This document shows positions 10,199 to 14,511 of a DNA stretch of 64,000 bases, one piece after another. This DNA is from a virus. The stretch spans positions 1,353-65,352 of IMG/VR virus record IMGVR_UViG_3300046051_000044; one strand, 5' to 3'. A model generated the notes under the pieces. It was not told where the DNA came from and searched no databases. It worked only from the letters and a program-made list of their open reading frames with translations. Every line of letters begins with the position of its first letter. The first letter of the stretch is position 1. A program made the translations under genes and the position numbers.

Positions 10199-11398
10199 TC
10201 ACTCTGTAGTGGTCGCGATATTGATAGCGGCATTGACGTCGGCGTGGACTTCGTAGCCACAGCGCCGGCAGGCGAAGTCCCGGCCATCGCGGTACTCGCG
10301 GTCGGTCTGCCCGCATTTCCGGCAGGTGATGCTCGTGTATCGCGGGTCGACAAACCGAACCGGTATCCCTGCCTCGGTCGCTTTGTACGCAATCTTCTCT
10401 TGAATCTGCTCAAACGGCCAGTCGTGAATCGGGTCGTCGGCCGTCTCCCGGTAGTGGGTGAGGTCTTCGAGATGAATCACGCAGGGCCTGTGGTCGGCGG
10501 CGAGGTCGACGGACCGGCGACTTGCGACATTCGTGATATGGTCTGTATAGCGGTCATAGGTCAACCCGGTTTGTTTGATTGCCCGGAGGTCCCCCCGCTC
10601 CATCGCCTCTGTGCGTTTCTGCTTGATTCGTTCGCGGTGATGGCGGTACTCGCCACCGCTTTCCATCTCGACGGCTCGAATATCGGGCGACTCAGCATCC
10701 GGCTGGTTGACGACGGCAACCGCGACGAGCGGGTCATCGTTGAGGTCGACGCCGACGACCGTCGAGACGTCAGGCGCGTCGTACACGTCGACGTCCCACG
10801 ACACCGTGAGATGGCACGTCAGCCGGCCGTCGTCGGTGAGATGGAGCTCGGCGCTCCCGGCGCTGGCGTCGTCATCCTCGTCAGTGACCCGTTCGAGAAA
10901 CTCGCGCTGATAGTCACCTATCTGAAGGTGGAACCAGAGCGGGTTATAGGGAATAAAACTCGCCTTCAGCCCCCACCCCCGGTCGTTGCGTTCGATTGTG
11001 ACGTCCTGATGCGAGAGTCCCAGATACGACCCATCGCCGAACTGCGGCCGCTTTCCAGGCTTTCCATTCGACGCCCACGAGTTGAACGACGACGCGACTT
11101 TCTGCCCGGCGACCCGTGCAATCGTCGCTTTCACAGTCCGGTCTTCGTTGGGGAACGCCCGCGTAACCATCCGGTACATCGTCGGGTTTCGTTGCGTCCA
11201 CTCGTAGTCTGGGAATGACGGCAGCATGGCCGCCATATGCTCCGTCATGGCCTGATACTCCTCGATGCCCTCACGAACCAACTCGTTTTTCTGCTGACTC
11301 GTCTCCAGCTGGCAGACGATGGTCCGCGTAACAGATGTTGTCGTTATTTCTGGGGTGTATTCCGTGAGTGGCTGTTGGTCAGGGTCAGACTCTGTCAT
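10199..11398 (-). CDS. tnpB: TnpB-family (IS1341-type) / Cas12f-like RNA-guided RuvC nuclease, CRISPR-adjacent
   Basis: RuvC-I VVGVDLN, RuvC-II IHLEDL, Zn finger CRKC...CRRC, RuvC-III HADVNAAINIA; 399 aa; ends a few residues after RuvC-III; no tnpA nearby. Confidence 0.9.
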   Translation of the reverse strand: MTESDPDQQPLTEYTPEITTTSVTRTIVCQLETSQQKNELVREGIEEYQAMTEHMAAMLPSFPDYEWTQRNPTMYRMVTRAFPNEDRTVKATIARVAGQKVASSFNSWASNGKPGKRPQFGDGSYLGLSHQDVTIERNDRGWGLKASFIPYNPLWFHLQIGDYQREFLERVTDEDDDASAGSAELHLTDDGRLTCHLTVSWDVDVYDAPDVSTVVGVDLNDDPLVAVAVVNQPDAESPDIRAVEMESGGEYRHHRERIKQKRTEAMERGDLRAIKQTGLTYDRYTDHITNVASRRSVDLAADHRPCVIHLEDLTHYRETADDPIHDWPFEQIQEKIAYKATEAGIPVRFVDPRYTSITCRKCGQTDREYRDGRDFACRRCGYEVHADVNAAINIATTTE

Positions 11399-11440
11399 AG
11401 TGGGGCACCCGCGGCCGTTCGACGAGAGTGTAGACGAGTA

Positions 11441-11450
11441 GAATTAAAAG
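11441..11450. promoter_or_regulatory. AT-rich TATA-like box between tnpB and the putative ncRNA
   Basis: GAATTAAAAG (TTTTAA on the - strand), ~27 nt before the first hairpin on + and ~47 nt before the tnpB ATG on -. Confidence 0.5.
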
Positions 11451-11471
11451 GGTTGCTAACACATTCCACAA

Positions 11472-11830
11472 CAACCGGGTGAGGCTATAGGTCTCGCCCC
11501 GGGACGCGGTACCTTCACCGCGTGTGGCGGATTGATGCTATCCGTCACGGGTCCGCCCGCCGCAAAGCGTGGCTTGGACGTCCCTGGCTTGGATACATGG
11601 GGCTGGACATTCGCCCCACGGGACTCCGCCACGATAGGCGAGAAGCGTGACATAGACAGCCACCGCTGCCGGGCTAGTACTACACGAACAGAGGTTGACC
11701 CTCCCCTTCGCAGGGGAATCTGTGGTCGGAAATCACGAACCTCGTGGCCGCCGTCCGCGGACGGAAGGAACGCCTCAAATGCAAGAGTGGACACCCCGCC
11801 GTACACTGAGGGGCCTTCTCCAAGGCCCCG
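11472..11830 (+). ncRNA. Putative structured scaffold RNA (tracr/scout/omegaRNA-like)
   Basis: Dense stems seen by eye: 11477-85/11491-99; ACGCGGT 11504-10/ACCGCGT 11517-23 with loop ACCTTC; GTGGCGGA 11524-31/TCCGCCAC 11625-32; GTCCC/GGGAC; CCCCT/AGGGG; CCGTCC/GGACGG; terminal GGGGCCTT 11810-17/AAGGCCCC 11822-29. No convincing ORF. Confidence 0.6.
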
Positions 11831-11899
11831 TGAAAGCGGAAAAAGAAACATCATACTCATACCGTTCAACTCCGGGGGCTGGGGAAAATAATAACCCTC

Positions 11900-12024
11900 T
11901 CCTGCAAAGGAAGTTTCGGCGATTTTCCATCGACCCCCGGGGGGAACACCTCCTATTGCCGGTCGATGGTCCTGGCCGACGCTAATCCCATCTGTTAGGC
12001 CGCGAAATGGGCAAATTCGACATG
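11900..12024 (+). promoter_or_regulatory. CRISPR leader, haloarchaeal type I-B-like
   Basis: Inverted repeat CCATCGACC (11927-35)/GGTCGATGG (11961-69) around CCCCGGGGGG; ends ...GACATG directly before repeat 1, as recalled for Haloferax/Haloarcula leaders. Confidence 0.7.
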
Positions 12025-14511
12025 GTTTCAGACGAACCCTTGTGGGGTTGAAGGGACCTGAACGTGCCACTCGCCGTATCGTATCTCGATACCGTTTCAG
12101 ACGAACCCTTGTGGGGTTGAAGGGAGGCGTTCAAACGGGCCGAGCAGCAGGTCGGAGTGTTTCAGACGAACCCTTGTGGGGTTGAAGGGAGAAGTATTCC
12201 GGCGTCGAGTCGGGGAAGGACGGGTTTCAGACGAACCCTTGTGGGGTTGAAGGATCGCTGACGCCCCGGTAACGCTGCTCGCGGTCGCGTTTCAGACGAA
12301 CCCTTGTGGGGTTGAAGGGTTTTTCTGATGTTTCATGGCCGAAAAAGTGACCGTGTTTCAGACGAACCCTTGTGGGGTTGAAGGGGGGTCTTGGACAGGC
12401 GTACCCGTACGCGATCCTTAGTTTCAGACGAACCCTTGTGGGGTTGAAGGCCGCCATCGTTTGCCGTGAAAAACACCACCCGCTGGTTTCAGACGAACCC
12501 TTGTGGGGTTGAAGGATGGCCTCGACGGTCGGCTCGAACGCCTCCGCCATGGTTTCAGACGAACCCTTGTGGGGTTGAAGGTTTGTCGATGACCGTCACC
12601 GGGACGTGGTCGTGCAGGCGTTTCAGACGAACCCTTGTGGGGTTGAAGGCCGCTTCAGTTCCTGGGCAGCCTTCCGATTACTGATCGTTTCAGACGAACC
12701 CTTGTGGGGTTGAAGGGACCGTGACGAGATGGACGAGGTGGACGCTGACGAGGTTTCAGACGAACCCTTGTGGGGTTGAAGGGTCCACGGCAACACGGGC
12801 GTGGGCAAGACGCTCGCGTTTCAGACGAACCCTTGTGGGGTTGAAGGGGTAGGCACATCCCGCCGTAGGGCCACCCGCCTTTGAGCCCGTTTCAGACGAA
12901 CCCTTGTGGGGTTGAAGGGACACACTGGTTTCTGGAAGATCGAGAGACGGAGGGTTTCAGACGAACCCTTGTGGGGTTGAAGGCGCAACGCGGATTCGCG
13001 GGAGATACGCACCCACGGCGTTTCAGACGAACCCTTGTGGGGTTGAAGGTCGCGACAGGCGTTGACCAACCTGTCGACGAACATGGTTTCAGACGAACCC
13101 TTGTGGGGTTGAAGGTCGACGTCTGCCGTGACGCTCACGTTGCCGTTCGAGTTTCAGACGAACCCTTGTGGGGTTGAAGGGATGATATCGCCCTCAGTGA
13201 TCGGGCCGTCGATCGATGTTTCAGACGAACCCTTGTGGGGTTGAAGGTCGACCTCGACCATGGCGCTCTCGAACTCGCGGGCGGTTTCAGACGAACCCTT
13301 GTGGGGTTGAAGGCTCCTTGTCGAGGCGCTGGCCGTTCTCGCCGACGGGCTGGTTTCAGACGAACCCTTGTGGGGTTGAAGGGGTTCGAGCCGGGCGATG
13401 GTGACGTCGACGCTCACGAGCGTTTCAGACGAACCCTTGTGGGGTTGAAGGAGCTCGAAGGGGCCGGATCGAGAGGCGGGCGAGTGGCGTTTCAGACGAA
13501 CCCTTGTGGGATTGAAGGGAATGGGAATACCGTCCAGTCGACCATCGACGGGTCGTTTCAGACGAACCCTTGTGGGGTTGAAGGGACGGTGATCAGCCGG
13601 ATGGGTGGATTAGATCATCGTTTCAGACGAACCCTTGTGGGGTTGAAGGAGCCGAAGCCAGCGACACCACACGCCGGGAAGTGCTGGTTTCAGACGAACC
13701 CTTGTGGGGTTGAAGGAGAGGTGGCGCCGAATGATCGACGCCCCGTGGTGGTGGTTTCAGACGAACCCTTGTGGGGTTGAAGGCCACACTGCTCGTATCC
13801 AGTCCAGGATCCTCGGCCGGTTTCAGACGAACCCTTGTGTGGGGTTGAAGGCTTGAAGGCACTCAGGTCATCCAGTAGGCGCCCGATGTTTCAGACGAAC
13901 CCTTGTGGGGTTGAAGGGCCTCGCCCTGCGTGATCGGCCGGACGCGGACGTAGTTTCAGACGAACCCTTGTGGGGTTGAAGGCCCTTGAGCGTAATGACG
14001 TCCTCTCGAATGAACGGAGTTTCAGACGAACCCTTGTGGGGTTGAAGGGCCGTGTCCGTTGTTATTGTCGCGTCAATATCGCCCGCGTTTCAGACGAACC
14101 CTTGTGGGGTTGAAGGGATGCGTGATCCCGGCGTCGGCTATGACCCCGACTAGTTTCAGACGAACCCTTGTGGGGTTGAAGGGAAGAAAACCCCGTAGGT
14201 GGCTTCACCGATGATGAAGTTTCAGACGAACCCTTGTGGGGTTGAAGGCGCGACAACGACACGGAGTGCATCGCAATCGAGGTAGTTTCAGACGAACCCT
14301 TGTGGGGTTGAAGGCGCGCGTACATCCCTGTCGACGGCCACCGCGATGAGAGTTTCAGACGAACCCTTGTGGGGTTGAAGGGAGTTTGGGCTGGGATCGG
14401 CGGTCGAGTTCCGCGCGTTTCAGACGAACCCTTGTGGGGTTGAAGGGGGTAGCGGTCGAGATACCGCCGGGCGATTGTGAGGTTTCAGACGAACCCTTGT
14501 GGGGTTGAAGG
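12025..14511 (+). CRISPR. CRISPR array, 38 repeats / 37 spacers (35-41 nt), repeat GTTTCAGACGAACCCTTGTGGGGTTGAAGG
   Basis: Counted by hand; all 38 copies end in GAAGG. Repeat 23 has GGGATTG; repeat 28 has a TG insertion. Differs from the canonical haloarchaeal I-B repeat only at position 30 (C to G). Confidence 0.98.

Follow-up and report, generated by a model that had tools for sequence, protein, structure and literature searches.

Among described RNA-guided systems, the closest to the locus reported here are the Cas12f1 nucleases (AsCas12f1, SpCas12f1 and OsCas12f1), effectors of ~400 amino acids (aa) that work with a trans-activating CRISPR RNA (tracrRNA) which holds the CRISPR repeat by a short pseudoknot duplex and a second duplex, a two-duplex layout known for V-B, V-F and V-G tracrRNAs (PMC11246509). 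These nucleases recognize a T-rich 5' protospacer-adjacent motif (PAM), SpCas12f1 having been solved on a TTC target, and Cas12f assembles as an asymmetric homodimer on one guide RNA in a manner that depends on the RNA (PMC12255294). Their adaptation genes are not linked to them, according to a survey that also counts ~50 independent transitions from TnpB to Cas12, some of them in archaea (PMC10691335). The candidate systems V-U6 to V-U45 of Altae-Tran 2023, and likewise the TranC intermediates between transposon and CRISPR as described in bioRxiv 10.64898/2026.03.27.714800, combine a TnpB-sized effector with a linked array only, their CRISPR RNA (crRNA) and tracrRNA being thought to stem from a split transposon RNA, and they are often found on plasmids or viruses, some of them in archaea. 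Here we describe a cassette at positions 10199-14511 of a 64,000-nucleotide (nt) stretch of the virus record IMGVR_UViG_3300046051_000044 (positions 1,353 to 65,352 of that record; the whole stretch is hereafter called the window), in which a gene for a TnpB/Cas12f-like nuclease, a structured helper RNA and a class-1-type CRISPR array stand side by side. Judging from its sequence, we regard the cassette as a real and well-supported new variant of tracrRNA-dependent type V, and very probably as a stand-alone CRISPR interference module of that kind belonging to haloarchaeal mobile elements; the linkage of its parts, the fold of its RNA, two RNA-repeat duplexes, the PAM and an intact active site are evident at the sequence level. 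To our knowledge, no class-2 system has been described in haloarchaea.

The effector gene (10199-11398, minus strand), delineated by its translation, profile matches and a structure model, encodes a 399-aa nuclease with WED-REC and RuvC domains and a C4 zinc finger. An earlier note on this DNA, made from the letters alone, had described the gene as intact, and indeed both the RuvC triad (D218/E311/D387) and the zinc finger (C359/C362/C377/C380) are complete; profile searches placed the protein above the cut-off for Pfam PF07282 and NCBIfam guided_TnpB, and the D-E-D triad is intact in 154 of 159 homologs. By the guided_TnpB match, the effector belongs to the same protein family as the TnpB of IS200/IS605 (IS1341) elements, whose right-end element RNA (reRNA) also harbors a pseudoknot just before the guide (PMC12255294). 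Unlike those elements, the cassette would draw its guide from a separate array, is rare (found in 9 of 401 genomes searched, at one copy per genome in all but one) and lacks tnpA, a conserved right end and a 3' RNA. No HUH (TnpA) motif was found in any frame between positions 7000 and 17500, Rfam gave no omegaRNA match, and nothing 3' of the effector stop codon is conserved across 32 loci, so that neither an insertion sequence (IS) right end nor an omegaRNA is present there, in agreement with the note's report of a gene with neither tnpA nor obvious IS ends.

In the structure model (predicted local distance difference test score of 90.7), the effector most closely resembles AsCas12f, with a template modelling (TM) score of 0.69-0.72 at 18-19% identity, as compared to a TM score of 0.55 for ISDra2 TnpB, and its best matches in the PDB, by structure as well as by sequence, are Cas12f1 proteins. 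This ranking is not proof of Cas12f membership, because an ordinary haloarchaeal TnpB also places Cas12f structures first when ranked by sequence. The effector reached 102 bits against the Cas12f2 model, below its cut-off of 450, and 140-142 bits against the PADLOC Cas12f/Cas12u3 models, to which outgroup proteins scored equally or higher; neither the PDB nor the PADLOC ranking was accepted as evidence of membership, since ordinary TnpBs rank alike. The cassette would thus work like Cas12f, and membership in that family is not claimed. It differs from Cas12f1 in several respects: the proteins share 16-20% identity, the arrays and leaders of the cassette are of class-1 type, its tracrRNA measures ~380 nt as against ~200 nt for the Cas12f1 single guide RNA (PMC12255294), and its second duplex spans 5-7 bp. 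In addition, its array lies mostly upstream of and divergent from the effector gene, whereas Cas12 arrays are almost always downstream (PMC10691335).

We gathered 46 distinct loci in which the helper RNA could be located. In all 40 distinct loci with at least 130 nt of sequence beyond the RNA, a count obtained by reading the locus sequences, the RNA is followed by a leader of ~100-200 nt and then by CRISPR repeats, two of the arrays being degenerate; close homologs of the effector were therefore not seen in ordinary IS1341 contexts devoid of arrays. Of the 46 loci, 38 have the effector gene divergent from the RNA and 7 have it upstream in tandem, while in one it stands behind the array; since the linkage holds in all three layouts, the cassette survives rearrangement as a unit. 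Ten ordinary haloarchaeal TnpB loci had neither the RNA nor an array, and a permissive search of viral contigs by DNA pattern brought up only chance loci, none of which matched the RNA profile and which served as negatives. At least 120 relatives of the effector were found at 50-71% identity; these and more distant representatives group in a single clade, acidic and haloarchaeal (55 rows; support of 100 in the Shimodaira-Hasegawa-like approximate likelihood ratio test). Their carriers include plasmids such as H. marismortui pNG300, proviruses, where the cassette lies beside tail genes, and chromosomal sites. The pNG300 effector is WP_011222210.1, and the accompanying array of 48 repeats has been given as one of the CRISPR loci of H. 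marismortui (PMC2841640). Neither cas8b, cas7, cas5, cas3 nor cas6 was found at the cassette among the window genes scanned and the called genes of related loci, with the exception of a single locus (L001), which is discussed below.

Two loci of a sister clade (L212 and L211) have the same layout with a diverged RNA; both of them (L212:4270-4960, from Ca. Methanohalarchaeum thermophilum, and L211:4390-4850) reside on elements bearing integrase and MCM genes and have mini-arrays of one to three repeats. A more distant relative (L233:1257-1746) has a structured-looking 3' region that ends in a repeat-like GTTGAAAG ~280 nt past the stop codon, possibly an unsplit, omegaRNA-like state. On pNG300, a second gene of the TnpB family (L210:25009-26358), an ordinary one unrelated to the cassette, converges on the effector gene. 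One contig (L079/L080, G583:C49) contains two identical copies of the cassette ~7.5 kb apart, either a tandem duplication or an assembly artefact.

Following the divergent effector gene in the window, the structured non-coding RNA (11468-11865, core ~11470-11848, plus strand) is predicted from its fold, conservation and covariation to be a tracrRNA. Its fold has a z-score of -3.06, with 0 of 100 shuffles as good, and in an alignment of 36 copies 49 of the 59 consensus pairs show double-sided changes, so that the structured RNA the earlier note had proposed stands, at a length of ~380 nt instead of ~360; sequence identity is 63-75% across nearly all homologous loci. The 5' part of the RNA folds into three hairpins; a central domain is closed by a long-range helix (5' strand at 11551-11556, plus strand, partner at 11787-11792; alignment columns 98-103 with 530-535, with many compensatory changes), and a 3' two-tier hairpin precedes an A-rich tail. 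As its pairs include 244 G-U as against 21 A-C combinations, the RNA is assigned to the strand of the array (plus), and the minus strand was rejected. Open reading frames overlapping the RNA were likewise rejected as genes, conservation tracking base pairing and insertions and deletions of any length being tolerated. No Rfam family matched the window copy or six homologs. A putative archaeal TATA box lies at 11442-11449 (plus strand), as suggested by an AT-rich peak found at equal offset in divergent and tandem loci; a bacterial promoter and terminator scan was set aside as uninformative, the organism being archaeal. In one subclade (L020, L025, L029, L030 and L037) the tracrRNA aligns in two pieces, which implies a central-domain insertion of ~130 nt or more.

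The repeats vary across the family, and pairing between RNA and repeat was therefore testable. Covariation points to two anti-repeats: a short one, CCUUC, in the loop of hairpin 2 (11512-11516, plus strand), which would pair with the last five bases of the repeat to form a pseudoknot, and a second one, ACCCCGC, directly after the long-range helix (11793-11799, plus strand), which would pair with repeat positions -7 to -13. The longest exact complement of the repeat in the window RNA is 6 nt, and the pseudoknot duplex measures 4-5 bp. Across 38 loci, the first anti-repeat is complementary to repeat positions -2 to -5 in every locus, with 150 of 152 pairs being Watson-Crick and the other 2 G-U, as compared to a mean of 123.5 and a maximum of 138 in 20000 shuffles, a control that ignores kinship; base -1 pairs as well in 20 of the 22 loci having a longer loop. 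In the second duplex, position -8 forms a Watson-Crick pair in 34 of 38 loci (C-G, U-A or A-U) and a G-U pair in 3, positions -9 to -11 are invariant C-G, and the -11 pair turns U-A in both sister-clade loci. Because shuffling ignores kinship, counts of changes on the protein tree were added: at position -2 the RNA, the repeat and their joint state each changed 9 times, and independent pairs at four positions ran in the same direction by 5:0, 3.5:0, 2.9:0 and 3:0, and never in the opposite one. By this covariation, the helper RNA is a predicted tracrRNA with two anti-repeats, co-evolved with the repeats of its array. Together with the linkage, it argues for the arrangement that the earlier note had outlined, a putative TnpB-derived type V system that uses a crRNA with a separate scaffold RNA and borrows class-1 acquisition. 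Short, separate RNA-repeat duplexes of 4-7 bp also occur in Cas12c and Cas12d (V-C and V-D; PMC11246509), from which the effector differs in that their proteins are ~three times larger and it gives a trace profile match to them only.

The array itself (12025-14511, plus strand), found by a repeat search and by Rfam CRISPR-DR24, is of haloarchaeal I-B type and contains 38 repeats, between which lie 37 distinct spacers, each 35-41 nt long; the 30-nt repeat is CRISPR-DR24 with a terminal G, repeat 23 having one substitution and repeat 28 a 2-nt insertion. The leader that precedes it (11866-12024, plus strand), recognized by sequence conservation, contains a palindromic motif (11930-11969) common to most 30-nt-repeat loci of the family, and both the I-B-like leader and the number of spacers are as first described. 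The terminal G, on the other hand, had been suggested as a trait to look for beside close homologs and does not hold for the family: of 38 loci, 20 have repeats that end in C, 14 in G, 3 in A and one in T, and besides 30-nt I-B-like repeats with various endings there are 37-nt repeats ending ATTGAAAC. Family repeats retain the class-1 hairpin. Near-identical cassettes (L015/L016/L017 and L031/L033) differ in their leader-proximal spacers, and therefore spacer acquisition is ongoing; a blastn comparison of the window array with named phages gave chance matches only. In its repeat family, its leader, its 33-39-nt spacers and its TTC PAM, the family resembles haloarchaeal I-B (and 37-nt-repeat, I-D-like) systems and orphan or virus-borne arrays. 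Unlike haloarchaeal class-1 systems, the cassette has neither cas5/6/7/8/3 nor cas1/2, and it has a single effector and a tracrRNA, which are absent from class-1.

In the mechanism that we propose, the ~380-nt RNA would be transcribed from its own promoter and, as the covariation indicates, fold into a scaffold that grips each repeat twice, by the 4-5-bp loop pseudoknot on its end and by the 5-7-bp duplex on positions -7 to -13. The spacer after the repeat would thereby come to guide the 399-aa RuvC nuclease, in the manner of Cas12f. The complex would recognize 5'-TTC, as the protospacers suggest, and, in keeping with the intact and conserved active site, would cut double-stranded DNA of viruses and competing elements. 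New spacers would come from the class-1 Cas1/Cas2/Cas4 of those hosts that have them, which would recognize the class-1-type leader and repeat in trans. The guide would most likely keep at least 11-13 nt of repeat and derive from an uncut precursor, and its maturation, the weakest step of this scheme, would require neither Cas6 nor RNase III and would be carried out by the effector or a general host RNase.

This last step was weighed against what is known of class-1 processing in haloarchaea. Haloferax crRNAs have an 8-nt 5' handle and a 22-nt 3' handle (PMC6546412), which places the Cas6 cut between positions -9 and -8, midway along the second duplex; this duplex also competes with the repeat hairpin. 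Five of ten host genomes tested gave no match to Cas1, Cas6 or Cas7 (half have Cas6), two of these cas-free hosts having intact arrays of 23 and 17 repeats, and no RNase III was found in any of five hosts examined. On these grounds, we favor capture of the uncut precursor, followed by maturation by the effector or a general RNase. Cas12c and Cas12d, known for short separate repeat duplexes or a scoutRNA, are effectors that process their repeats without RNase III. The earlier note had supposed instead that the effector loads a Cas6-matured crRNA with the 8-nt 5' handle, in which case anti-repeat 2 would hold a nicked duplex made of -8/-7 and a 3' handle, either that of the same crRNA or that of the one before it. 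The pseudoknot bases -1 to -5 and the covarying -8 do all fall inside such a handle, the class-1 hairpin has been kept, and the Haloferax crRNAs and the presence of Cas6 in half of the hosts fit as well; yet anti-repeat 2 pairs unbroken across the -9/-8 cut and competes with the 3' strand of the very hairpin that Cas6 needs, only two of its pairs would be left on the guide's handle after the cut, and the other half of the hosts, among them the two with intact arrays, have no Cas6, all of which makes this route unlikely.

At six mismatches or fewer, 5'-TTC precedes 9 of 11 protospacers (background, 1.3%), in line with the 5' TTC PAM that had been suggested for the cassette; proteins of the Cas12f1 type, too, are suited to such a target. 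Five of the TTC protospacers are those of the pNG300 array and lie in Haloarcula tailed virus 3 (HATV-3); the other four belong to the window array and lie in the window itself, in genes of a tailed virus. Spacer 16 matches the tape measure gene without mismatches (28763-28798, minus strand), and spacers 23 (25372-25407, minus strand, 1 mismatch), 32 (20441-20476, minus strand, 3 mismatches) and 36 (22276-22310, plus strand, 2 mismatches) match tail-region genes. For the tape measure gene, a search among viral contigs found no relatives.

The record that holds both spacers and targets falls into two parts. Although classed as viral, its 80.9 kb resolve into a 64.3-kb circle, with genes for a portal, a terminase-like protein, a tape measure and a Cas4-like protein, and a 16.6-kb arm, on which the cassette is accompanied by genes that are syntenic with those of small Salinigranum and Natronorubrum plasmids. 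The junction between the plasmid-like arm and the virus circle (15146-15266), detected as an end-to-interior overlap, consists of 121 nt identical to the end of the record. A DNA methyltransferase gene occurs in two copies that share 79% identity (window 14512-15266; record end, G000 80147-80898). Their homology sets in with the very base that follows the final CRISPR repeat and rises to the 121 identical bases at the record end, which suggests that the boundary of the cassette is the repeat itself. The simplest reading is that a plasmid-like element and a virus targeted by it were joined in the assembly or form a cointegrate, and in view of the overlap and of the plasmid synteny of the arm, the four 'self' targets probably lie on a virus distinct from the carrier of the cassette. 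Other family arrays gave no convincing self-target within the flanks examined. The same matches, with their TTC PAM and 0-3 mismatches, and the position of several family members next to tail genes in proviruses could also be taken to mean that the RNA-guided complex acts mainly by binding or repression, or leaves its own replicon unharmed, and controls a co-resident or its own provirus without destroying DNA; we find this improbable, as the catalytic triad is kept in nearly all homologs, target and cassette are probably different molecules, and the other arrays gave no convincing self-target in those flanks. That the array is an orphan class-1 array feeding host Cascade, adjacent by accident to an immobilised TnpB with the RNA as its private omegaRNA, is highly improbable. 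In its favor, the repeat, leader and PAM are of class-1 type, virus-borne arrays exploiting host CRISPR systems are known (PMC11656645), and where Cascade is present, these spacers may well serve it too. Against it, most loci have the RNA upstream of the gene and on the opposite strand, the 3' end of the RNA is a conserved hairpin with an A-rich tail and not a variable guide, the RNA covaries with the repeat, and the cassette to which it belongs persists in hosts without Cas7.

Against the stand-alone interference module itself stand several points. In the independent-pairs test no single position reached p<0.05, the pairs being too few; the covariation table was curated by hand, with the repeat ends of four degenerate arrays picked by eye; and several of the cas-free hosts are draft assemblies. 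TTC is also the known haloarchaeal I-B PAM (PMC6546412) and therefore points to class-1 acquisition, so that it need not be the PAM of the effector, and the four spacers with a TTC-flanked target in this very record, one of them a perfect match, would be lethal if cassette and virus shared one molecule. At L001:3730-6960 (Halegenticoccus tardaugens), an N-terminally truncated effector gene directly follows the last of 35 I-B repeats, beside a full I-B system and without a tracrRNA; it is the only long locus lacking the RNA and was probably left behind when a deletion or recombination took place at a repeat. Two decaying loci (L005:3700-4385 and L060:800-1338) retain the gene and the tracrRNA intact, but their repeats are down to between one and three and have diverged strongly, although the repeat ends continue to match the anti-repeat loop; these loci may be fixed-guide or regulatory derivatives.

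As a tentative fuller account, we consider it possible that class-1 arrays were taken over by a class-2 lineage, so far undescribed, that belongs to halophilic archaea (Halobacteria, plus a sister branch in Ca. Methanohalarchaeum). Its unusually long tracrRNA would intercept the I-B- or I-D-like precursor across the Cas6 cut site and mature it without Cas6 or RNase III, its anti-repeats would have been re-tuned many times as repeat types were swapped, and host Cas1/2/4 would supply spacers with a PAM that both machines share. In the literature searched on haloarchaeal TnpB or Cas12 with CRISPR, the family is nowhere described, and the main texts on V-U6 to V-U45 and TranC name no haloarchaeal member. 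Loci with arrays linked to other CRISPR types were left out of the Altae-Tran 2023 survey, and the protein clade could already be listed there or with TranC under a number of its own. One proposed route from TnpB to Cas12, by capture of another class's array, is represented here by a widespread family with base-level co-evolution of tracrRNA and repeat, and the array-capture model is therefore directly testable; with pNG300 residing in a cultured strain and five of its spacers directed against the cultured virus HATV-3, existing strains suffice for such a test. A 400-aa nuclease adapted to molar salt and having a 3-nt PAM could, moreover, serve as a single-protein editing tool for haloarchaea.

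Other features of the window lie outside the cassette. The solo Cas4-like gene that had been noticed near it does exist (17660-18358, plus strand), encoding a PD-(D/E)XK nuclease (PHROG 1706) that scores 24 bits against a cut-off of 65; it lies beyond the junction, on the tailed-virus part, and no match to it was found beside any other member of the cassette family. It is not part of the CRISPR system, whether the record is a join or a cointegrate. Positions 1-9731 are occupied by an operon of signal-peptide and membrane proteins, which is syntenic with haloarchaeal plasmids of 39-76 kb (NZ_CP026314 and NZ_CP019330) that also carry S8 peptidases, and which resembles the pR1SE/apHPV vesicle plasmids. 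At the other end (window 61168-64000; L209:521-8070), the TraD/VirB4-like ATPases of the circle are ~54% identical to a transfer protein encoded on NC_013968, an H. volcanii plasmid of 85 kb, and a tailed-virus circle with such genes is either a virus-plasmid hybrid or a further join.

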